A DNA stretch of 31,623 nt from a virus. The stretch is from the UHGV virus genome UHGV-0098804, one strand, 5' to 3'. Below are positions 3,290 through 26,041 of this stretch, in pieces (position 1 is the first letter of the stretch; each line of letters opens with the position of its first letter). The notes beneath the pieces were generated by a model. The model was given only the letters and a program-made list of their open reading frames with translations, ran no database searches and was not told the DNA's origin. The position numbers were made by a program, and so were the translations under genes.

Positions 3290-4111
3290 TTAATAATGGT
3301 TAGCCATCCATTCAGATCTAATTGATGGGATAAACTCTCTATTGAGAAAGGGGACGTACAGTGTGGTTGTCACATCTGCACCCTCCTTAGCGTTTTTGCA
3401 ATGTTGCGGAGGCAGGATCAGTCGGCTTGAGCCTCTCTCAATAGACATTTTCAGGCCGTGGCGTAGGTCTTTTTGCATAAGCTGTATGCGAGCCACAAGC
3501 GGGGTAAATTCGGTTTCAAGCGCCATGCTTTCAATGATGTCAAAGCGTCGGTTAGCGGCCTGCGTGAAGTCCTCCGGATCGTCTTCAAGCGCCGTGCATA
3601 AAGCGAGTTCAGCAATTCGCATCCGTGCTACGCCAGCACTGTATTCGGGAGTTTTCATATCAGGAAGTGACGCTCGCATTCGTTCAAGGAGTTCCGCGCC
3701 TTTCCCGGTTAATGGTTTAAGTATCCAGTCAGTTGGTACTCCATTTACTGGTACGTTGGTTTTCACGTAAGGAGGTACAGTGAGTATTTCTACTGTTTGG
3801 GCCAGGTCGCTCAGGTTAATATCTGCATGATGCGTATTACCGCAGTGACTGCACTCATAGGAGTAGGTCATTACTGCATCGGGGCGCGAATTAACAAATA
3901 TCCACCAAAGAGCAGTTCTGCGGTCCTGAACTGTCCAGTTAGCACTGTCGTTAATTTCACCATCCTGCATAGAGTTAAGGTACTCTGTAGTCGTTGCCTC
4001 ATCTTCTGCCGGGTTCAGGTCAGAATATTTCAGCGCATCCTTCACGGTAGGGGCGTGGAACTGAATTTCTGTCTCAGGACGGGAAGGCAATGGGAATTTT
4101 GGAATGTTCAA
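3290..4111 (-). CDS. Hypothetical phage protein (273 aa), TTG start
   Basis: Track ORF; GGAGG lies 7 nt upstream of the TTG at 4111; sits between the structural block and the tape-measure-like gene. No family recognised. Confidence 0.55.
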   Translation of the reverse strand: MNIPKFPLPSRPETEIQFHAPTVKDALKYSDLNPAEDEATTTEYLNSMQDGEINDSANWTVQDRRTALWWIFVNSRPDAVMTYSYECSHCGNTHHADINLSDLAQTVEILTVPPYVKTNVPVNGVPTDWILKPLTGKGAELLERMRASLPDMKTPEYSAGVARMRIAELALCTALEDDPEDFTQAANRRFDIIESMALETEFTPLVARIQLMQKDLRHGLKMSIERGSSRLILPPQHCKNAKEGADVTTTLYVPFLNREFIPSIRSEWMANHY

Positions 4112-4262: not shown

Positions 4263-4356
4263 GAGTATTTTTATAAACCTTTTTCCATTTTTAATCCTTT
4301 TTAGATCCTTTTTAGGCGTCGCTGGAGCCAGTAGTGGCGCGGGCTGTAGAGGAGGC

Positions 4357-4476
4357 TGGTGTAAGATTTGCCCTCAATTAAATACGATCGGTGTAAGATT
4401 TGCCCTCAGAAGGTGTAAGATTTGCCCTCAAAAGGTGTAGTAATTGCCCTCAAAGTGGTGTAAAAATTGCCCTCAC
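4357..4476 (+). repeat. Five direct iterons (19-20 bp, consensus GGTGTAAGATTTGCCCTCA) upstream of and overlapping the repA start region
   Basis: Copies at 4357-4376, 4389-4408, 4411-4430, 4433-4452, 4457-4476 with about 22-bp spacing. Ends in ATTGCCCTCA like F/RepFIB-type iterons as I recall them. Confidence 0.85.
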
Positions 4477-4499
4477 CATTTGAAGGATCACACAGGGTT

Positions 4500-5255
4500 A
4501 TGAACAGAGCGGAATTAACAGCAAAAGCCGTCAGCCTGATTGAGTCAGCGACACCTATTAGTCGTAGTCTGGCACAAGCCAATGAGATCACGGAGGCTGC
4601 TTATCACCTGACTCGCGACCAAAAGCGACTGTTGTTTATTGTGGTGGGAAGACTTCGCTATGCTTCTAAGGATGGCGTTCTTGGTTCAGGTGCCTGTGAG
4701 TTGACGGTCAACGAATATGCAGAGATGTATAATTTGCCCTCTGCTGAAGCCAGCAAGGATATTCGTAAGGCCATTTCAGGGCTTAGCGAGAAGAAAGTTA
4801 CGATATATAACCCTGATGAATCGACCGAATCAGAAGACAGTTATGAGTCTTATCCCTGGATGATTAAGGATGCCTATTCACCACGGCGCGGGACTTACAT
4901 TATTCATCTTAATCCATATCTCATGCCGTTTTTTACTCTGCTTGATAAGAGATTCACAAGGCTGAATTTTACCGAAGTATCTCGCCTTACAAATCCTTAT
5001 TCTATGCGGCTTTATGAGTCCTTATGCCAGTACAGGAAGGATGATGGAAGCGGCTTTGCCATACTTGGCGTCGAATGGATGCGGGAGCGTTATGGGTTAC
5101 CAAAAAGCTATCAGCGGTATGCCGAATTTAAGAGAAGTTTTTTAACGAAGGCTGTAGCAGAGATTGAAAAAAATACAAAAATGAAAATAGTCTTCTCAGA
5201 GGTGACGGAAGGCGGCAAAGTTACCAGGATAAAATTTACCTATCAGCAGTCTTAA
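4500..5255 (+). CDS. repA: Iteron-binding replication initiator RepA (Rep_3-like), about 251 aa
   Basis: Track ORF 4467..5255; preferred start is the ATG at 4500 (MNRAELTAK...) because the first 11 codons fall inside the last iteron. N-terminal LIESA...LTRDQKRLLFIVVGRL resembles the Rep_3 initiator motif (recalled, not searched). Flanked by iterons on both sides. Confidence 0.8.
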   Translation: MNRAELTAKAVSLIESATPISRSLAQANEITEAAYHLTRDQKRLLFIVVGRLRYASKDGVLGSGACELTVNEYAEMYNLPSAEASKDIRKAISGLSEKKVTIYNPDESTESEDSYESYPWMIKDAYSPRRGTYIIHLNPYLMPFFTLLDKRFTRLNFTEVSRLTNPYSMRLYESLCQYRKDDGSGFAILGVEWMRERYGLPKSYQRYAEFKRSFLTKAVAEIEKNTKMKIVFSEVTEGGKVTRIKFTYQQS

Positions 5256-5546
5256 GGGCAATTTTTACACCCCTCTCAAGGTGTAGAATTTGCCCTTAAC
5301 GATCGGCAATTGAGGGCAATTTTTACATCTTGATTGCATGTATCTCGTTATTAGCAAGTTGTGTTTTTATATAACGTATTGATATGTAAGGATTATGTAA
5401 AAATCGCCCTCAACCAATATCGTGCGTATCGTGCATTCTTATTGCGCTTTTTTATTATCATTCACTGTGTTAACTGATTGATATTATTGAAATATGTAAA
5501 GAATGCCTTCATTGCTGATGGATTGATGATGTAAAAAATGCCCTCA
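5255..5546. repeat. Second iteron cluster downstream of repA (mixed orientation, partly degenerate) with an AT-rich stretch: candidate incompatibility/copy-control locus
   Basis: Iteron-like copies at about 5255-5272 (inverted), 5279-5298 (direct), 5312-5330 (inverted), 5393-5413, 5491-5510, 5528-5546 (degenerate direct); AT-rich 5340-5480. Confidence 0.6.
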
Positions 5547-5636
5547 ACATTGCGCTACCTTCCCTACCCGCTATCGTTGAGGTCGTGGGTGCTGACGGGA
5601 AATGAGCAACCCTCCAGCACACATAATTAAAGCTAT

Positions 5637-6344
5637 TCAGAATTTGATCACTCCACTCACAGCCCCCTTTAACGCGCTTGTAGCCATGCCAGCGGCACCG
5701 TTGACCAAAGCAGAAACACCTGAGCCTGCGGATGTGTATTTCTGGAAAGTGATTGGATATGACAAGAACTCTGACACCTGGTCTCGTGAGCGGGTGATTT
5801 CCCCAAGTTGAGTGGGGAATACGCGCATTTCCTCTTCCAGTTCTTTTCCGCCGTCCTGAGTTACCCGGTAGAGACGGATTTTCATCAGATATTCAGGAGG
5901 AAGGTTTATTGTTCCGTCCGGATTTGTTACGCGAGAACGACGTTCTTTGAACCAGTCCATGATCTTGCCATCTTCGGTATCCCTCACGGTCATAGTGACC
6001 GGTCCGACGCTAACATAGGTTGGCTTGCTGAATTCTACGCTGCCGATCACCTTGCTTTCTGTCTCGATGTTTCCACTGCTGTACGTGATATCCTTCACGA
6101 ACATATCGAAGCCGTTCAGGCCATCCACTTCAACTGTCCATTGCCATCCCTGGGCATAACGGATACGCATAGCGGCAGCAACAATATTTTTCCCGTAGGC
6201 AATATCGCTACTGTAATTCCCGCTTACCCCGCCGCCTGATATGGCTTTATCAAGAATGTCGCTAATGAGGTTGCTGGTGAATGATTTCGTGTTAAATGAC
6301 AATGCGGTGGTCAACGTTCTACCAACGCTGCTGAAAATACTCAC
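5637..6344 (-). CDS. Hypothetical phage structural protein (235 aa), GTG start
   Basis: Track ORF; GGAGG 7 nt upstream of the GTG at 6344; closely packed in the minus-strand structural operon. Confidence 0.5.
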   Translation of the reverse strand: MSIFSSVGRTLTTALSFNTKSFTSNLISDILDKAISGGGVSGNYSSDIAYGKNIVAAAMRIRYAQGWQWTVEVDGLNGFDMFVKDITYSSGNIETESKVIGSVEFSKPTYVSVGPVTMTVRDTEDGKIMDWFKERRSRVTNPDGTINLPPEYLMKIRLYRVTQDGGKELEEEMRVFPTQLGEITRSRDQVSEFLSYPITFQKYTSAGSGVSALVNGAAGMATSALKGAVSGVIKF

Positions 6345-11023: not shown

Positions 11024-12721
11024 TCACTTTTTTTCGTTAACCTTGCCTGTCAGCATGTCGATAGCACCTTCTTTGGCACGAGTCAGACGCAGGCGGGCGA
11101 AATAATTCTCACCGTTGCGCGGGTGGACTTCGTTGATAGCACTACCCCAGAGAGTGGTGCGGTTAACGAGAGATGGATTGGTTTCGTGCACATACGGGAT
11201 TGCTGGGACCGCATCACCAGCGATCAGCCCGGCTTTACCGATGCCTTCACCGCGACCATAGAAATAAATGTCATCCAGACCTAAGTCATATCCCTGAGCC
11301 TTGAATTGCTCACACACAGGCTGCGGCACTTCGTAAATACGAATCGTGCCAAACAGGGTGCCGATGTACTGCACATACGGTGACTGAACGTAGCCCGGCG
11401 CGATTTGGAAGTGCTGTGGAGGCAGAGAACGCAGGAAGTTAGCTGCGTCACCACCTGCGAAGCCACCGCGAATACCTGTGGTCAGGGTGCGGTTTGCCAT
11501 TTCCTGAGACAGGGCGTTTACTGCGTGGCGCAGGAGGCCGACCCAGGACTCATAGTTTTGAGCTTCAGGCAGAGCCACATCAAATTCACGACCATAAACG
11601 GTATGGAATACCAGGGTGCGCAGACGCATGATGTCGGTTTCATGGGAGATCCAGTTCCGCATTGCGGAGAACTGAAGTGCCGCCAATTCAAGGCCGTGTT
11701 CACGGCTTAAATCGGAAGCGGACATTACGGTGTGTTCGGAAGCAATTACGTACTGAGACGGTCGAACTTCATACTTACGCATAGCCTGGTTGATTACCGG
11801 AATCAGGCTTGGATTGCGCTCGATGTTAATTTCGACCTGAACCGCAATTTCAGTCCCTTCTGCTGGCGCTTGAGTGAAGGTAATGTCGATGACACCAGTG
11901 TCATAAGCGACTTTTGCGGTAGCTGAGAATGCATTGCCTTTGCAGTCTTTATCATTGAAATAAAGGTTGCCATCGCCGTCGTCAACCTTGGACGGTTTGC
12001 GGTTGATAAGCAGCTTGTTATAACCAGCACGCAGCGGGCAGGACTGCCCCTCAAAATTTTGGATGTCGAACTGGAAAGTTTTGGTGCTACCGTCCCCTTT
12101 CGTGGAAAGGGTATACAGGCGCTTCATTTGAGAATAAACACCAGCGGACTGCATATTCAGTTCGTCACCTTGCTCGAAGGTGCCGAATTTTGTGCCTGCT
12201 ACGTTGACCAGTTCATAAATATTTGACTCATCACGATCACAAGGAACAAAAGTACAGGCATCACTGGTAGCAGCACCCAGAGAGGCAGGCAGAATTAGTG
12301 CAGCATATTGAGCAACTTTCATTACGCCGTCAGAGCTACGCATTGATTGCGCGACAGACTCAAACATTGCCTTGCCAGTGCCTACGTGTGTATCGCTGGC
12401 ACATTCAGTCATCAGGCGTTCAAGTGCCATGTGTGCGTTTGCCAGGATATCGCTTGCCGGGTAGTGACCATGCTGGCGCTTGTACTCATGCAGAGACATA
12501 GCCCACCCACCAGCGATCTGACGTGCAACCTCTGGATTTACGCCTTCAAACATAGCCTCCTTCTGGATAGCTTTATCCAGGTTCTCCATCATCGCTGCCT
12601 GATCAGCAATCATATTGCCCGCAGCATCGGTGGTCGGATCGACGGTCATAGCCATGACGCTTGCCGCCCGATTCATAATCTCGCGCTCGCGATCACGAGC
12701 TGGCTGAATGTTTTTATTCAC
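11024..12721 (-). CDS. Large virion protein (565 aa): candidate major capsid protein, GTG start
   Basis: Track ORF; first gene of the minus-strand structural run, followed by the Ig-like gene. Assignment by size and order only. Confidence 0.35.
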   Translation of the reverse strand: MNKNIQPARDREREIMNRAASVMAMTVDPTTDAAGNMIADQAAMMENLDKAIQKEAMFEGVNPEVARQIAGGWAMSLHEYKRQHGHYPASDILANAHMALERLMTECASDTHVGTGKAMFESVAQSMRSSDGVMKVAQYAALILPASLGAATSDACTFVPCDRDESNIYELVNVAGTKFGTFEQGDELNMQSAGVYSQMKRLYTLSTKGDGSTKTFQFDIQNFEGQSCPLRAGYNKLLINRKPSKVDDGDGNLYFNDKDCKGNAFSATAKVAYDTGVIDITFTQAPAEGTEIAVQVEINIERNPSLIPVINQAMRKYEVRPSQYVIASEHTVMSASDLSREHGLELAALQFSAMRNWISHETDIMRLRTLVFHTVYGREFDVALPEAQNYESWVGLLRHAVNALSQEMANRTLTTGIRGGFAGGDAANFLRSLPPQHFQIAPGYVQSPYVQYIGTLFGTIRIYEVPQPVCEQFKAQGYDLGLDDIYFYGRGEGIGKAGLIAGDAVPAIPYVHETNPSLVNRTTLWGSAINEVHPRNGENYFARLRLTRAKEGAIDMLTGKVNEKK

Positions 12722-12879
12722 GGTTAAGCCCTAAATTCGGGCGCGGCGTGAAGGTTCTTTTGACGCGCTAACAATACCAACTTTGTGATTTAGTCAATAG
12801 CATTAGTAAAATAAAATCTGTTAACACACGTGTTGTTATGTGGTTTAATTTTAATTTTCTAACACAAATCATTACGGTT

Positions 12880-13272
12880 ATGGCGTATCGGATCTTTGTT
12901 TCGTATAAAAATGGCGCGAAAAGCCACTCCCTGAACACAACGAGCCGCTTTCTTGTTGAGGCGCAACTGGCATCAATTCTTGCTGAAAGTGAGATACTCT
13001 CCCTCGCTGAACGAATCGTCATCCAGTTTTCTGGTAGAGATATTCTTAATGTCCCCGCCCTCACCCCGGCCTCCGAAGTCATGGAATCCATTAAATGGCC
13101 TGTATGTGGATGCCCGGCGAGAGTTGAAGAGCCGGTAACCGCTACGCTCTATATGCCGAAAGCAGTAAGAGACTGGCTTGCTGTGATTGGCAACGGGAAA
13201 GTCAGTGCTGGACTGCGAAAGTTAATTGAAATGGCAGATATTCCAGAGTTAAAAAACGCATGGCGACAATGA
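12880..13272 (+). CDS. Hypothetical protein (about 130 aa; track start 12838, ATG 12880 preferred)
   Basis: Track ORF 12838..13272; the first 14 codons lie in an AT-rich promoter-like region; stop overlaps the next ORF (ATGGCGACAATGA). Confidence 0.3.
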   Translation: MAYRIFVSYKNGAKSHSLNTTSRFLVEAQLASILAESEILSLAERIVIQFSGRDILNVPALTPASEVMESIKWPVCGCPARVEEPVTATLYMPKAVRDWLAVIGNGKVSAGLRKLIEMADIPELKNAWRQ

Positions 13273-18299: not shown

Positions 18300-18420
18300 T
18301 ACCGATTTGATGCCTTATTGGCGTCTATCGTGTACCAGTGCAATAATGGTGTCAAAGTGGCGCCATAATGGTGTTAATATACAGCCATATTGATATCAAA
18401 TTGACACTGTATCGGCATCA

Positions 18421-18446
18421 AAAAGCCCCAGGCGGGGCTTTTTCTA
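18421..18446. terminator. Bidirectional rho-independent terminator between the par operon and the dam operon
   Basis: aaaaagcccc aggc ggggcttttt: GC stem flanked by an A-run and a T-run; overlaps the dam stop codon. Confidence 0.6.
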
Positions 18447-19349
18447 TTTGAGCGTTGCAATGATATCGTTAGCGACTATTCGCGTGGATGCTTTGCATGA
18501 CACGGACCGCCTGGCTGGCATGTGGTACAGCTTAAAACCGTTTCTTTCGTACAATTCGCGAATTTTTGGCGCGCCACTGTTTGTTATTACTATCTTTGCA
18601 CCGCGCTGGTGGGCCGCCACCAACAGTGATACAAGCCGTTTTTGTTCATCGAAAAGGAAGCTATTTCCTGAATAGCTGGTAAATCCCTCTGTATCTGGCA
18701 GCGGCTCATACGGCGGATCACAAAAAATCACATCGTCTTCACCAGCCGCCTCGATGACACCAGCAAAGTCACCTGATACAAAGGAAGTGTTTTTGAGTAC
18801 GTCATCAGCCAAAAATGCCTCCATCTCTGCATGTGGGAAGTAGGGCGCTTTGTATTTGCCATACCCCACGTTGAACTCGCCATTTTGGTTGTACCGCGTT
18901 ACGCCATTAAAACAGTGACGATTAAGGTACAAAAATGCGGCAGCATGATGTAGCTGGTCATATTTTCCTCTGTTAAATGCCTCACGCACTTCGAGGTAAG
19001 CGTCAGCGTTGTTGTAATTTTTGAAAAAACTATATGACAGCGTGACGAGCGAATGTCCTTCTCGCTGCAATGTCTGATAGAAGTTAATCAGGTCACCGTT
19101 AATATCATTAAGCAGGTTTTGGCGAAATCCTGCATTCGTAAATACGGAACCGCCACCAACGAATGGTTCTATTAACCGCTTACCGTGTGGTAGATGCTCA
19201 AGCACTGTAGGCAATTCTGAGAATTTACCACCTACCCATTTGAATATCGGACGCTCATATTCATCCGGAGTCCGAATGGTGCGCATATAGCTAATTTCAG
19301 CCATCGTATCCTGTTTTTCTATGGCTATGCTTGCTATAGATTTACTCAT
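18444..19349 (-). CDS. dam: DNA adenine methyltransferase (Dam-like, N6-adenine, DPPY motif)
   Basis: FKWVGGK...EPFVGGGSVF...LYLNR...CDPPY align with E. coli Dam motifs (recalled). Preferred start is the ATG at 19349 (MSKSIA), which overlaps the upstream stop by 8 bp; the track start 19445 would overlap the upstream gene by about 100 bp. Confidence 0.85.
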   Translation of the reverse strand: MSKSIASIAIEKQDTMAEISYMRTIRTPDEYERPIFKWVGGKFSELPTVLEHLPHGKRLIEPFVGGGSVFTNAGFRQNLLNDINGDLINFYQTLQREGHSLVTLSYSFFKNYNNADAYLEVREAFNRGKYDQLHHAAAFLYLNRHCFNGVTRYNQNGEFNVGYGKYKAPYFPHAEMEAFLADDVLKNTSFVSGDFAGVIEAAGEDDVIFCDPPYEPLPDTEGFTSYSGNSFLFDEQKRLVSLLVAAHQRGAKIVITNSGAPKIRELYERNGFKLYHMPARRSVSCKASTRIVANDIIATLK

Positions 19350-20022
19350 AGAGCACCCCCTTATTCGCTTCGAAAACTGCCTTTGCGAATCCATGTGGAG
19401 TAGCACTTCGAAAATTAGCCCTGTCAGGCCCTGGTGGCGCGGCATGGATTCTGTTATCTGGCTTGCCTAATGATTCGTCCATTAGGGCATCAGGCATGAC
19501 AAAGCCCTGGCCGCTCCAGAGGCATGTTTTTTTGGTGTAGTTATCTTCCTGACAATATGCAGTGAAGAAGTAAGGGTGAAAGATGTGATCTGGCTTACGC
19601 CAGAATGTCGATATTTTGCTGACCGGATTTTCAATCATGTACGGACAACCGATCATCTTTGCAATGTCATAACACTGCCAGACAACCTGCATTGCTTTGA
19701 ACTGGAAAACCGGATCTTTATTAGCCTTGTCTGAAAACCAGCGCGCGCCGGAAACAGCCAGGTCAGTACACGGTGGGAACCCGGCCAGAAACACGATGCG
19801 CTGCAAATTCTTACGGAGAAAAGCGTATACTTCATCGCTATCGATGATCGCACTAATACGCGTCAGAACGGCACCTGATTGCATCCGCTCGTCACTGGTC
19901 GATAAGTGCTGTGGATCGACGATAGCGGCATCGACACCGTATTCCAGCCAGGGGGCAACCATTGCCCCCGTAAAATCACAAAGACTCACAACAAGCGGTC
20001 GGTTATTATCGTTCTGCTTCAC
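19342..20022 (-). CDS. Short C5-cytosine-methyltransferase-like protein (about 227 aa)
   Basis: [14 protein letters not shown] resembles C5-MTase motif IV (PCQ) and MIENPV resembles motif VI (ENV); weak motif-I-like LCDFTGA. GTG start at 20022 has GGAGG 10 nt upstream and overlaps the rdgC stop; the track ATG at 20094 would lie 88 bp inside rdgC. Confidence 0.45.
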
Positions 20023-20911
20023 CGCCAATGGCCTCCACCAGCGCGTTAAACAGTGCAGATAATTCGCCCGTAAAGAGCACGAAATCAGCATCAAATCGTT
20101 GTGCTACATCCTCCCGGTCGATATCGTCGTTCTGGTCATAGAGATCATCACAGAATGTCAGGGCTTTGATACTCATATCATCGTTGACTTTGAACGACGC
20201 GCGGTCCATCCAGTTAATTGCAACGGTCGTAGCTACTTTCCCCGCCTCAATGTGAGACATAATCTCGTCGGACTGTAGATCAACTTTGTTGCAGCGAACG
20301 GCACCACCATTATCGAGCAGACCCTTTAATGTGGCGTCTTCACCTGCTGTAAATCCGGCAGGGAAGCCGTTTTTAAACCACTCGGTCATTGTAATTTCCA
20401 GCGGTTCGCGTGGTGTGAATGGAATGACAGGCAGGCTGCCGAGCGATTTTCGCAATAAAGCCAGCTGGTCCTCTGCTTTTTTGGCGCTGCTTGCCTCAAC
20501 GAATACCAGATGGTTGCTGCGGTCGATCAGGATTTTTGCGAGTGATTTTCTCGTGAAAGCACGAGGAAGAAGAGAGTGAAGCACTTCATCCTTCAGCGAA
20601 TCTTTTTCGGTCTTCTTCAGCTTTCTGTCTTGCTCTTCTTCAAGTTTCAGGATTTTTTTCTGTAACTCTTCTTTGAGTACTTGAGAAGGCAGGATTTTTT
20701 CCTCTCGTTTATGCTGCATCAGAAGAAAACCCTGGTATTCATGGGTGAGGTTGTCGCCAAGAATTGGGGTCCAACCAGCTTTAGCCATATCCTGAGAACC
20801 GCATGGGGTAAACACAAACTTGCTAAGGGCTGCATTTACTTCTGCAGTATCCCAGCTAACTTCGCGTGAAAGACGATAGATGAAGATATTTTTGAAAGCG
20901 ACTGATCTCAT
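20006..20911 (-). CDS. rdgC: Recombination-associated protein RdgC homologue
   Basis: Near-colinear similarity to E. coli RdgC as recalled (FKNxxxYRLSRExS, [31 protein letters not shown], [15 protein letters not shown]). Confidence 0.85.
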
Positions 20912-20917
20912 GTCTCA

Positions 20918-20961
20918 CCATTTATGTTAGAAAATACACATTAATTATCTAACACAAATGG
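20918..20961. promoter_or_regulatory. Operator-like imperfect inverted repeat (ccatttatgttagaaaa ... ttatctaacacaaatgg) in the 60-bp gap upstream of rdgC
   Basis: Two arms of about 17 bp around a central acacattaatt; a matching half-site (ttttctaacacaaatca) occurs at 12853-12869 upstream of the capsid-like gene. Confidence 0.4.
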
Positions 20962-20970
20962 GTGCATTTT

Positions 20971-21624
20971 CTATCCTTTCTTGAAATCGAAGTTGCCAGC
21001 AGTGGCCTGAAAGGTTCCCCCTGCCTTGAAAGCTATGTTTCCGTTAGCGGTGACAGCAATATTTTCCCCATTAACATTGATGTTGTTGGCTGATTTGACG
21101 TTAACACTCCCTCCTGCATTCACGATTACATCAGCCGGACCAATGATATATATCTGCCCGGACTCATTCATGCCAATCCTTGAGCCTGCTGCCGTATTGG
21201 CAATTTCATAGCCGCCACCAGCAGTTCGTACTTCAAGAATATTGTTGCGGTGAATAACGAAGTCTTTCGTTGCTGAGATTTGGGGGCGGGGAGGTGCTCC
21301 ATCTACTTCCGGCGGCGTCCAGCCGCTACCATTGCCTGACGCCTCCGGCGCGACGTTTGGAACTCCGCCAGGCGCATCCTGAGCTGCGCCAACTATCATT
21401 GGGCGTCTGGTGTCTATTCGACCGTTAACATCTAAATAAGGAAACTCTACCCAGACAAGGTCACCTTTGACTGTAGGTACAAAAGCGTTCCCGATGGGTA
21501 ACAGGTATTCCGCCCAGGGTAGATCGTCATCAGGAACGCCATTCCAGTCAGGTAAAACACGGACTTGAGCACGCATAAGCCCTGCCGGGTGCACAGTTCC
21601 AACAATTTGCGCTCTACGCTTCAT
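20971..21624 (-). CDS. Baseplate central spike protein (gpV / gp5-like)
   Basis: N-terminal pattern (GTVHPAGLMRAQVRV...LPWAEYLLPIGN...KGDLVWVEF) resembles baseplate assembly protein V; C-terminus is a Gly/Asn/Val repeat typical of a beta-helix spike. Confidence 0.5.
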   Translation of the reverse strand: MKRRAQIVGTVHPAGLMRAQVRVLPDWNGVPDDDLPWAEYLLPIGNAFVPTVKGDLVWVEFPYLDVNGRIDTRRPMIVGAAQDAPGGVPNVAPEASGNGSGWTPPEVDGAPPRPQISATKDFVIHRNNILEVRTAGGGYEIANTAAGSRIGMNESGQIYIIGPADVIVNAGGSVNVKSANNINVNGENIAVTANGNIAFKAGGTFQATAGNFDFKKG

Positions 21625-24695: not shown

Positions 24696-25034
24696 ATGAA
24701 ACAGGCAACCAGAAAACCGACGACCGTAGGTGATATCCTTCTGTACGAATACCTGGAGCCGTTAGAGCTGAAGATCAACGAGTTAGCAGAAATACTTCAT
24801 GTTCATCGTAACACCGTAAGTGCTCTTGTTAATAATAATCGTAAGCTAACGATGGATATGGCATATCGCCTGGCAAAAGCATTCGATACTTCTGTAGATT
24901 TTTGGATTAATCTTCAGACCGCAGTAGATCTGTGGGAAGTCGAAAATGATATGCGCGTTCAGGAAGAGTTAAGTCGTATCAATACTGCTGAAAAATTTAT
25001 TTCTCAGCGGAACCTGAATAAAAAAGCAGCCTGA
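24696..25034 (+). CDS. higA: HigA-like antitoxin (XRE-type HTH)
   Basis: HTH region LAEILHVHRNTVSALVNNNRKLTMDMAYRLAKAFDTSVDFWINLQTAVDLW matches the HigA antidote pattern; immediately downstream of higB. Confidence 0.8.
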   Translation: MKQATRKPTTVGDILLYEYLEPLELKINELAEILHVHRNTVSALVNNNRKLTMDMAYRLAKAFDTSVDFWINLQTAVDLWEVENDMRVQEELSRINTAEKFISQRNLNKKAA

Positions 25035-25055
25035 TATAGTAAAATACATACAAAA

Positions 25056-25084
25056 AGCCCACTTAGCAAGTGGGCTTTCCTTTG
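25056..25084 (+). terminator. Rho-independent terminator after higA
   Basis: agcccactt agc aagtgggct followed by ttcctttg. Confidence 0.55.
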
Positions 25085-25090
25085 TAATTA

Positions 25091-25291
25091 ATGAACATTA
25101 AACCTATCCGTACAGAACAAGATTATGAGGCCGCACTGCGTGCGGTCGAACCGATGTTCGATAACGAACCGGAAATGAATACTCCGGAAGGTGATTTCTT
25201 TGAGGTTATGAGTCTTCTCATTGAGGAGTACGAGAAGAAACATTACCCAATTCAGCCACCATCACCTGTTGAATCTTTTAACTATCCATAA
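25091..25291 (+). CDS. Orphan antitoxin-like N-terminal domain ORF (66 aa, no HTH): possible remnant of a third TA module
   Basis: IRTEQDYEAALRAVEPMFDNEPEMNTPEGDFFEVMSLLIEEYEKKHYPI resembles the N-terminal non-HTH domain of E. coli K-12-type HigA antitoxins (recalled). Starts right after a terminator with no SD; the usual C-terminal HTH is absent and an AT-rich gene follows. Confidence 0.4.
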   Translation: MNIKPIRTEQDYEAALRAVEPMFDNEPEMNTPEGDFFEVMSLLIEEYEKKHYPIQPPSPVESFNYP

Positions 25292-25312
25292 TAAAAGTAA
25301 TCAGGATAAGCT

Positions 25313-26041
25313 ATGATGTCAGAAAAAGTTACAGATAATCCGTCTATAAATGAAACAGAACTAAAATCATTTTCTGAAATAATAAAAGATAAAATATTTA
25401 ACAAGGTTTTTGCATATGTTGTCATTTCTTTTCTAATTTTTAACTGGAAGGATATTTTAATTATATTAAAGTCAAAGGACGACATCCTATATACATTATC
25501 TATTGTTTTTGTTGGTGGTAATGTCCCGTTCTTTGATAATTGGATTGTATCCCCGTGGGTTTATCACGTTGTAATCCCATTTGTTTATGGAGTATTTGCA
25601 TCTGTGTTAGCTCCTATTCTCACACTGAAGATATCTAAGCTAACAAGTAAATTATACACTGAAATAAGATATTTGGATGAAGTTGCTGATTATGATAAAA
25701 GAATAGAATTGCAAAGAAAGAAAACAAAGTTAAATCAAGCAACCAATGACGCTAAATATTCAAAACAAATCTTAGATGAAAATGAAAATAAACTTAATGA
25801 CCTAGCTAAGAAACAGCGAGAAATTTGTGGCGCGATAAAACTATTGCATACTGATGTTGGCAGTATTATTGAGCTATATAAAAATAAGGGGGTTAGCATT
25901 GAATCTCCGCAAGATTTATGTGATTTTATAGTCGCTATAAAAAGCACATCATTCTATAATGATGACAAGCATTTTAATAAATTGGTGTCTGATATTTCCA
26001 GTTTGTTTGATAATACTGGAATTGATCTTTCAAAAAAATGA
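25313..26041 (+). CDS. AT-rich accessory gene: multi-pass membrane N-terminus plus C-terminal coiled coil (242 aa), function unknown
   Basis: Track ORF with AGGA SD. Composition is visibly far more AT-rich than the flanks. Hydrophobic segments (FAYVVISFLIFNW; LSIVFVGGNVPFF; VVIPFVYGVFASVLAPILTL) then a charged heptad-like region. Confidence 0.6.
   Translation: MMSEKVTDNPSINETELKSFSEIIKDKIFNKVFAYVVISFLIFNWKDILIILKSKDDILYTLSIVFVGGNVPFFDNWIVSPWVYHVVIPFVYGVFASVLAPILTLKISKLTSKLYTEIRYLDEVADYDKRIELQRKKTKLNQATNDAKYSKQILDENENKLNDLAKKQREICGAIKLLHTDVGSIIELYKNKGVSIESPQDLCDFIVAIKSTSFYNDDKHFNKLVSDISSLFDNTGIDLSKK

Follow-up and report, generated by a model that had tools for sequence, protein, structure and literature searches.

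An rdgC, C5-methyltransferase-fold and dam operon in a D6-like phage-plasmid, a probable counterpart of the P1 hrdC-dmt operon

Three minus-strand genes, rdgC, an open reading frame encoding a 226-aa protein, and dam, are chained by overlaps in the window, that is, the whole 31,623-nt stretch of the virus genome UHGV-0098804 analyzed here (Table 1). The overlap of rdgC with the middle gene comprises 17 nt (20022–20006), and that of the middle gene with dam, 8 nt (ATGAGTAA), which confirms the layout described in an earlier note on this DNA. The three genes lie between a promoter-like site, overlapped by a candidate repressor operator, and a terminator hairpin. No Rfam families or tRNAs were found in the window.

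Table 1. Features of the rdgC–dam region (positions in the window)
Feature	Position	Strand	Description
rdgC	20911..20006	(-)	301 aa, homologue of P1 hrdC
Gene of predicted minimal C5-cytosine-methyltransferase fold	20022..19342	(-)	226 aa, GTG start, homologue of D6_64
dam	19349..18444	(-)	301 aa, D12-class N6-adenine methyltransferase; homologue of the C-terminal half of P1 Dmt
Promoter-like site	within 20920..20973	(-)	TAGAAA 20973-20968, 18-nt spacer, GATAAT 20949-20944
Candidate D6-type C1 operator half-site	20959-20943	minus	ATTTGTGTTAGATAATT
Candidate D6-type C1 operator half-site	20920-20936	plus	ATTTATGTTAGAAAATA
Bidirectional intrinsic-terminator hairpin	18420..18443	both	AAAAAGCCCC-GCCT-GGGGCTTTTT; sequence and folding

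The middle reading frame is open from a TTG codon at 20094, and the best start is the GTG codon at 20022, as it has GGAGG 9 nt upstream, the N-termini of homologous proteins line up at it, and the annotated gene of phage D6 starts at the equivalent codon. The dam frame is open from 19445; the ATG codon at 19349, preceded by the Shine-Dalgarno sequence AAGGGGG with a 6-nt spacer, yields the 8-nt overlap with the middle gene, and a start at 19304 is an alternative. Translational coupling of the two methylase genes is proposed.

The locus is the already-annotated operon of rdgC, a small cytosine-methylase-like gene and dam known from D6-type (P1-like) phage-plasmids. The phage-plasmid context suggested earlier is borne out by 97% DNA identity to phage D6 (MF356679) and 100% identity to three Escherichia coli plasmids. 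The D6 record is reportedly due to Gilcrease and Casjens, 2018. In D6 the trio D6_65, D6_64 and D6_63, annotated as RdgC family, putative DNA-cytosine methylase and site-specific DNA-adenine methylase, respectively, has the identical order and identical 17-nt and 8-nt overlaps; D6 differs in carrying glnS, absent from the window, just downstream of dam, and otherwise only by point divergence. The trio with conserved spacing was observed in 17 out of 17 IMG/VR loci encoding a middle protein at least 64% identical to that studied here, as well as on plasmids in 100 out of 5,426 complete E. coli genomes (about 2%), and rdgC and the middle gene both have dN/dS of 0.06–0.10. Given this recurrence in D6, the IMG/VR loci and E. 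coli plasmids, together with the low dN/dS, the arrangement is not a chance one.

The assignment of the first gene is supported, in agreement with the earlier note. The protein matches Pfam PF04381 over residues 6–298 of 301 (E 8.8e-103, 344.1 bits against a cut-off of 25) and NCBIfam NF001462 (383.4 bits against a cut-off of 330), and aligns at full length (residues 5–301) with the ring-dimer structure of E. coli RdgC, PDB 2owl (E 9.9e-110), as well as with PDB 2owy (E 8e-61), the gene studied here being a plasmid/phage-borne paralogue of the E. coli one. The identity is 98% to D6_65 and 52% to HrdC of phage P1, encoded in the equivalent operon position, and RdgC homologues are encoded in 296 phage records, at variance with the former view of a phage-borne RdgC as unusual. 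By homology, the protein would be a ring binding double-stranded DNA and able to restrain RecA; inhibition of RecA functions by E. coli RdgC is established (cited in PMC12315714).

The dam assignment holds as well. The product matches Pfam PF02086 (D12; E 1e-55, 189.6 bits against a cut-off of 22) and TIGR00571 (248.3 bits against a cut-off of 114.85), is 68% identical to residues 478–753 of P1 Dmt, and aligns at full length with E. coli Dam (PDB 2g1p, E 1e-58), including the SAM-binding EPFVGGGSVF and the catalytic FCDPPYEPL. The segment FLYLNRH..RYN..EFNV, containing the LNR, RYN and FNV DNA contacts, is also conserved with E. coli Dam. The differences are about 30 additional residues at the N-terminus and Gly in place of Pro134, likewise seen in P1 Dmt; this gene, too, is a plasmid/phage-borne paralogue. 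The Dam half of Dmt is annotated in the P1 record as methylating GATC, and the protein is a putative GATC adenine methyltransferase.

Cleavage of the P1 pac site requires Dam methylation (PMC12707154). In the window we found no pac-like cluster of GATC, and GATC is not depleted (111 sites compared to about 124 expected). Outside the window, pacA of D6 contains five GATC sites within 135 bp, but 20% of random placements match this density, which is not statistically strong, and the cluster is suggestive only.

The middle protein is a different case: the earlier note had proposed profile searches for all three proteins, and while RdgC and Dam matched, the 226-aa protein yielded no methylase match in Pfam, NCBIfam or PADLOC, failing PF00145. 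Neither did it match PDB sequences in a phmmer search, and a profile search of PDB produced only spurious matches to ornithine decarboxylase (E about 0.6). Comparison of its family with N-terminal halves of P1 Dmt by hhalign gave a probability below 1%. Homologues retrieved with this half of P1 Dmt as a query were all near-identical P1-type proteins, so no diverse C5 profile was obtained. Still, the modelled structure clearly has the fold of the C5-methyltransferase catalytic domain, and in this sense the C5-methylase-like nature of the short protein, suggested earlier, stands.

Moreover, motif I-like, II, IV, VI, VIII-like and X-like elements are present in the canonical order, and not only motifs IV and VI, as had been thought. 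Motif IV is FPPC85T and motif VI is E131-N-P133, and among 128 distant cluster representatives C85 is conserved in 127, E131 and P133 in all 128, and D36 in 123. Two other motifs deviate from the canonical form, QxRxR of motif VIII being represented by Y162-T-K-K-T166, and GN of motif X, by R205-S206, according to a manual alignment on the conservation table with the register uncertain by about one residue. The target-recognition domain is absent; in its place there is a conserved loop about 35 residues long (172–204), at which some relatives (P0009 and P0241) carry a 28-residue insertion. The family is large, forming more than 2,600 clusters at the 50% identity level and being found in 1,580 phage records, and is common in early and DNA-metabolism regions of both lytic and temperate phages; literature searches found no biochemical test of any member.

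Could the short protein be something other than an ordinary SAM-dependent 5mC methylase, that is, transfer a different group (carboxymethyl from Cx-SAM), act on another substrate, or be dead, as the earlier note had allowed? We regard this as quite improbable. Its second-best structural match is CmoX (PDB 8yf3), a phage DNA cytosine C5-carboxymethyltransferase, and both proteins have the PPC nucleophile motif and an Arg of motif X near the cofactor pocket. However, CmoX is a 333-aa protein with a recognition domain, and its published criteria are SPPC, Arg at the position of Asn304 of M.HhaI, and cmoA nearby (PMC12783734). Here the motif is FPPC, and Arg205 is, in our manual alignment, one residue before Ser206, the equivalent of Asn304. 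CmoX genes usually adjoin cmoA and a ligase gene, and no cmoA-like or ligase gene was seen flanking the operon in D6 or in the window. As for a dead enzyme, the invariant Cys and Glu, the strong purifying selection (dN/dS about 0.06–0.10) and an intein located precisely at the catalytic Cys of one relative (P0339) make it very unlikely.

A related reading retains activity and considers the whole family as minimal C5-fold enzymes lacking the recognition domain and having a rewired active site, with Thr for the cytosine-binding Arg165 and Arg-Ser for Gly-Asn of motif X. Such an architecture could imply that the target is relaxed or unusually short, or that plain SAM is replaced as the donor, e.g., by Cx-SAM; we consider this speculative and rather unlikely.

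The overlap of the middle gene and dam raises the possibility that their products form a heteromeric bifunctional enzyme, a split Dmt, in which Dam would supply the DNA binding or targeting that the short enzyme, having no recognition domain, lacks. This would be consistent with the coupling of the genes by the 8-nt overlap, with their adjacency at one locus (L025) where Dam identity is only 45%, with a natural fusion of the short methylase and Dam in P0241, and with the C5 methylase fused to Dam in P1. On a wider scale the association disappears: out of 63 more distant loci of the middle family, none has Dam within 4 kb, the genes of PaulSarasin, CR3, a Vibrio phage and a Pseudomonas prophage have no adjoining Dam, and the neighbor in HK578, about 400 bp away, is a different type of N6-adenine methylase. 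As the distant members and these phages lack an adjoining Dam, the short family should be functional without it, and we consider a split enzyme unlikely. Since, in addition, just one of the 63 loci has rdgC nearby, we also rejected the trio as a general RdgC-methylase module.

The two half-sites upstream of rdgC form an inverted pair of the D6-type 17-mer and look like a bivalent prophage-repressor operator. The promoter-like site that it overlaps, the only one at the operon, is weak (9 of 12 positions), and the promoter scan count is no higher than in shuffled sequences. The operator-like 12-mer is overrepresented in D6, with 14 sites compared to 3.3 ± 2 in shuffles, and these are found upstream of c1, lpa, icd/ant, ref, ppp and cre. 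The dmt operon and ppp are annotated as C1-controlled in the retrieved region of the P1 record, and we take c1, lpa, icd/ant, ref and the cre region of P1 to be C1-controlled as well. The arms of the inverted repeat are conserved across D6-like contigs, while the spacer varies, and in two contigs (L022 and L024) both arms are changed symmetrically. The P1 C1 operator consensus itself has no matches in the window at up to three mismatches, the sequence upstream of rdgC agreeing with it at 11 of 17 positions, so the operator is assigned by motif recurrence and by the position relative to homologous genes. The match of this inverted repeat to sites at D6 genes with C1-controlled counterparts in P1 suggests repression of the operon in lysogeny and its expression upon lytic induction.

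At the other end, the terminator hairpin directly follows the dam stop codon, is common to the convergent parA-like operon, and has a folding energy of about –15.6 kcal/mol on either strand. One more terminator-like site, at 19521–19505 inside the middle gene, is within chance expectation and was discarded.

The candidate operator bears on the timing of operon action. It had been suggested that RdgC might exert effects during lysogeny; in a reading of this kind, RdgC would damp host RecA and SOS, and the methylases would reprogram the host epigenome. The inhibition of RecA by E. coli RdgC and the stable maintenance of the element as a plasmid would be in line with this, but the only promoter-like site is overlapped by the candidate bivalent operator, and the homologous P1 operon is C1-controlled; hence we find action in the lysogen hard to credit.

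Considering the gene identities, the fold, conservation and synteny, along with the operator motif being both enriched and suitably located, the region is probably (at a probability of roughly 0.7) the D6-type version of the P1 uhr-hrdC-dmt operon, repressed in the prophage and methylating replicating phage DNA. It would be a single transcription unit of a D6-like phage-plasmid, delimited by the promoter/operator and the terminator. Most likely, a C1-type prophage repressor silences it, and it is turned on early once induction or infection has occurred. The methylases would then modify replicating phage DNA, Dam keeping GATC fully methylated, as pac cleavage needs in P1, and the 226-aa protein, as a minimal orphan C5-fold enzyme with the 35-residue loop for a target-recognition domain, adding a protective mark, while the RdgC homologue may modulate RecA-dependent processing of phage DNA. 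These roles would be accessory, since neither hrdC nor dmt is required for lytic growth of P1 when the host is Dam+, and hrdC was non-essential in a CRISPRi screen (PMC10695390).

Anti-restriction is a plausible purpose of the methylases. In its strict form, with both of them serving purely to pre-methylate phage DNA against restriction enzymes of new hosts, it is a possible reading, if clearly a less probable one. Both methylases are orphan, as had been supposed, no nuclease gene adjoining either of them, and Dam matches the "orphan methyltransferase" models of PADLOC; the occurrence of the short family in early regions of many phages points in the same direction. On the other hand, GATC is methylated in E. 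coli hosts anyway, which leaves little protection for the phage Dam to add there, and the documented need of P1 for Dam is pac cleavage. The D6-type elements already have the Dar anti-restriction genes, and in the BASEL study resistance to restriction was not linked in any simple way with the presence of these methylase genes (PMC8594841). Overall, the earlier interpretation is partly supported.

The operon itself is ordinary, being annotated in D6, paralleling the long-known hrdC-dmt of P1 and occurring in about 2% of complete E. coli genomes. The practical value is in annotation, as the middle gene is labeled "hypothetical protein" by NCBI PGAP despite the clear C5-methyltransferase fold of the modelled product, and its family is not represented by any model of Pfam, NCBIfam or PADLOC. 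Determination of the family activity and target would explain a modification that far more than a thousand phages with sequenced genomes potentially carry, among them common groups of coliphages on which phage-host studies are done, and would bear on the fate of phages facing restriction and methyl-dependent restriction. If a short or relaxed target or another donor proved true, this would be a widespread, so far unmapped phage DNA modification.

Compared to the canonical C5 methyltransferases of PF00145 (M.HhaI, M.HaeIII, DNMT3), the 226-aa protein has the same fold and motif order, with the Pro-Cys nucleophile loop after strand 4, Glu-Asn-x after strand 5, and a motif X-like C-terminal helix, but is about 100 residues shorter and has Thr instead of Gln after the catalytic Cys.

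The P1 operon consists of the promoter Pdmt with the C1 operator Odmt/Op68, followed by uhr, hrdC and dmt with overlapping junctions. It adjoins upfC, and its operator differs in sequence from the bivalent candidate considered here, whereas the present operon lacks uhr and lies directly downstream of the baseplate gene 5. Dmt is a single 754-aa fusion of canonical PF00145 and PF02086 domains, while here the two functions are encoded by separate genes, and its C5 half has no detectable sequence similarity to the 226-aa protein; the replacement is a non-orthologous one, by a member of another phage family that is very widespread. The order is the same in both operons: the RdgC homologue, then the C5-type function, then Dam.

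All three minus-strand open reading frames described in the earlier note, rdgC, a short C5-methylase-like gene (here the middle gene) and dam, were found in place, so that the observation itself is confirmed, while its interpretation is partly right. The middle frame is open from TTG 20094. Its GTG start at 20022 is credible, as GGAGG is located 9 nt before it, 50 homologues have N-termini that align no more than a few residues away, and the equivalent start is annotated in Escherichia phage D6 (MF356679). Given this start, rdgC and the middle gene overlap by 17 nt; the overlap of the middle gene and dam, given ATG 19349 with its AAGGGGG, is 8 nt (ATGAGTAA), as reported earlier. The hairpin directly 3' of the dam end is common to dam and the convergent parA-like genes.

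Features of the rdgC operon and its upstream region
Feature	Position	Strand	Description
rdgC	20911..20006	-	301 aa
Middle gene	20022..19342	-	GTG start, 226 aa
dam	19349..18444	-	ATG start with Shine-Dalgarno AAGGGGG
Terminator hairpin AAAAAGCCCC-GCCT-GGGGCTTTTT	18420-18443	both	about -15.6 kcal/mol on either strand
Promoter-like site, weak	gap between baseplate gene 5 and rdgC	-	TAGAAA, 18-nt spacer, GATAAT
Candidate operator 17-mer ATTTGTGTTAGATAATT	20959-20943	-	inverted pair with partner at 20920-20936

The identification of RdgC holds: the protein is a full-length family member (Pfam, 344 bits; NCBIfam equivalog score above the cut-off; E = 1e-109 against the E. coli RdgC structure 2owl). 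The view that a phage-borne RdgC is unusual does not, as it is 52% identical to HrdC of bacteriophage P1, and 296 phage records contain a homologue (among them P1, ICP1 and numerous phages of Vibrio and Pseudomonas), as do some lambdoid phages (PMC12315714), making RdgC a minority trait in phages and no surprise. The Dam-type adenine methylase is likewise supported: it belongs to the D12 class (PF02086, 1e-55; TIGR00571 match) and shares 68% identity with P1 Dmt over residues 478-753 of the latter, and its alignment with E. coli Dam is full-length, with FVGGGS, DPPY and the LYLNRH..RYN..FNV segment retained. One protein (P0004, from a 1,053-bp ENA contig) links the C-terminus of RdgC in frame with the short methylase via the upstream extension of the methylase frame; this probably reflects a frameshift or an error in assembly and not a real fusion.

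The middle protein matches phrog_757 at 3e-78 and has no sequence match, profile search included, in Pfam, NCBIfam, PADLOC or PDB. Its structural matches are DNMT3B (score 12.7), the carboxymethyltransferase CmoX (12.3), the prophage enzyme 3g7u (11.6), DNMT3A (11.1), DNMT1 (9.8), M.HhaI (9.8), M.MpeI (9.6) and M.HaeIII (9.3), with 169-187 residues aligned (175-187 in the first four matches), compared to mostly 115-158 for generic Rossmann folds; Foldseek agrees (DNMT3A, E = 7e-5). The order of secondary-structure elements and motifs follows the canonical C5-methyltransferase scheme: strands 1, 2, 4 and 5 are followed by LCDxTG, Asp36, FPPC85T and E131-N-P, respectively, and C-terminal RSATPxGFAxAV aligns with motif X GNAVPxxLAxAI. 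Hence the short frame has a methyltransferase fold, consistent with its C5-methylase-like description, and is not limited to motif-IV- and motif-VI-like signatures, as strand-1, strand-2 and motif X-like elements are also present. The same fold forms one domain of two very large phage proteins in BFVD (A0A6J5NPY6_2, 1,126 aa, and A0A6J5SE15_1, 1,397 aa), one of which has an annotated helicase/UvrB domain at its N-terminus.

Of the two suggestions made for this protein, non-canonical or inactive, the former stands and the latter is very unlikely. Several lines of sequence evidence point to an active enzyme. Among 128 representatives of 50%-identity clusters of the family, Glu131 and Pro133 are conserved in all 128, Cys85 in 127 and Asp36 in 123, and Arg205 in 116 of the 120 aligning at that position; comparison with D6-like relatives gives a dN/dS of 0.06-0.10, equal to that of rdgC. 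Moreover, in a short-family protein, P0339, a Hint/LAGLIDADG intein interrupts the sequence as FGFPP|C...HN|CTNLSVSG, so that the catalytic cysteine occupies the +1 position of the extein, and inteins typically sit at such sites. LAGLIDADG_3 and Hint_2 domains are also seen in P0216, a canonical C5 methylase of the P1 Dmt type. The enzyme is non-canonical, since about 35 conserved residues (172-204) occupy the place of the target-recognition domain, motif VIII QxRxR is replaced by YTKKT, and motif X Gly-Asn by Arg-Ser (both by manual alignment, with an uncertainty of about one residue). In some relatives an insertion of 28 residues falls exactly at the 172-204 position. There is a small chance that the rewired active site reflects an unusual specificity or donor group.

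Among the matches listed, the short-methylase family forms over 7,900 clusters at 90% identity, and at least 2,617 at 50% identity (median length 226 aa); it has members in 1,580 phage records, with Drexlerviridae, Dhillonvirus, Vequintavirinae and Vibrio phages among them. A literature search found no experimental characterisation of the family; in the BASEL study such methylase genes had no simple link to restriction resistance (PMC8594841). The remaining interest lies in an uncharacterised, minimal C5-methyltransferase-fold family with a possible unusual specificity or donor. In all 17 IMG/VR loci with a short methylase at least 64% identical, rdgC precedes the methylase gene and dam follows it directly, even where Dam identity is as low as 45%, and a natural short methylase-Dam fusion exists (P0241, 563 aa); hence the coupling looks selected. 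The family as a whole does not depend on Dam: among more distant loci Dam is found within 4 kb in 0 of 63 and rdgC nearby in one of 63, and four annotated phages and one Pseudomonas prophage have the short methylase, in early or DNA-metabolism regions, with no adjacent Dam.

The operon is already known from the annotation of D6, a P1-like plasmid prophage, and from the P1 parallel. Window positions 18455-21000 are 97.3% identical to D6, where the counterparts are annotated as 'RdgC family' (D6_65), 'putative DNA-cytosine methylase' (D6_64) and 'site-specific DNA-adenine methylase, similar to C-term half of P1 dmt' (D6_63). Three 92.5-kb E. coli plasmids carry an identical (100%) operon, and it is found in 100 of 5,426 complete E. 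coli genomes, plasmid-borne every time; the PGAP annotation of these records identifies rdgC and the adenine methylase and leaves the middle gene a 'hypothetical protein'. A glutaminyl-tRNA synthetase gene lies between orf61 and dam in D6 (59925-61586; 4280-5941 in locus L001) and in other D6-like plasmids, and is missing from the window (about 18300-18455) and WCHEC-type plasmids, constituting a presence/absence polymorphism at the operon's terminator. In the D6-like E. coli plasmid NZ_CP122510.1 the match to the operon region is broken into two, and an IS91-family transposase is among the features annotated there, which suggests an insertion in or beside the operon. Elsewhere in the window, an AT-rich island (25001-26000; GC 0.33 against about 0.47) holds a 242-aa ORF (25313..26041, +) beside RelE/HigA toxin-antitoxin genes; this ORF is a homologue of D6_73 by position, is matched by neither Pfam nor PADLOC, and may be an accessory gene gained by horizontal transfer.

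Upstream of rdgC, the gap to baseplate gene 5 is 59 nt. The candidate operator motif occurs 14 times in D6, compared to 3.3 +/- 2 in shuffled sequences (at most 4 mismatches): upstream of c1, lpa, icd/ant, ref and ppp/pdcB, beside cre, and at the rdgC operon. In the P1 region examined, operators of the prophage repressor C1 are annotated at the dmt operon and ppp. C1 is known to control the counterparts of the other motif-bearing genes in P1 as well. The motif shares 11 of its 17 positions with the P1 operator consensus; the consensus itself is absent from the window. Both arms are conserved in D6-like contigs, with a variable central spacer, and in two of these (L022 and L024) both arms are altered symmetrically (AAAACTGTGTTAGA ... 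TCTAACACAGTTTT), an apparent footprint of function. From the motif recurrence, arm conservation and C1 control in P1, we infer that a prophage repressor would keep the operon off in the plasmid-prophage state and that induction would derepress it, as in P1, making the proposed effect during lysogeny less likely. A second exact 12-mer copy of this candidate D6-type operator (ATTTGTGTTAGA, context GATTTGTGTTAGAAAATTAAAAT) is located at 12858-12869 (-), between a capsid gene (11024..12721, -) and an ORF (12838..13272, +); its D6 equivalent is at 54222.

Orphan phage cytosine methylases are usually explained by protection from restriction, which is plausible for the middle gene. In P1, lytic growth on a Dam+ host does not require hrdC or either half of dmt (PMC10695390), which are hence accessory, and Dam, according to a paper citing Sternberg & Coulby 1990, keeps the pac GATC sites methylated for packaging cleavage (PMC12707154). 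Outside the window, the N-terminal part of the D6 pacA homologue (3715-3849) contains five GATC within 135 bp, four of them inside a TGATC pentamer on one or other strand, at the position of the methylation-controlled pac site of P1; as 20% of random placements reach the same density, the cluster is suggestive only.

The P1 operon is arranged as Pdmt/Odmt (the C1 operator)-uhr-hrdC-dmt, where Dmt is a fusion of a canonical C5 methylase (PF00145) with Dam. The window retains the order RdgC, C5-type enzyme, Dam; unlike P1, the C5-type function is a separate gene, translationally coupled to dam. With no BLAST similarity between the middle protein and the N-terminal half of P1 Dmt, the middle gene is a non-orthologous replacement of the P1 C5 half inside a conserved module.
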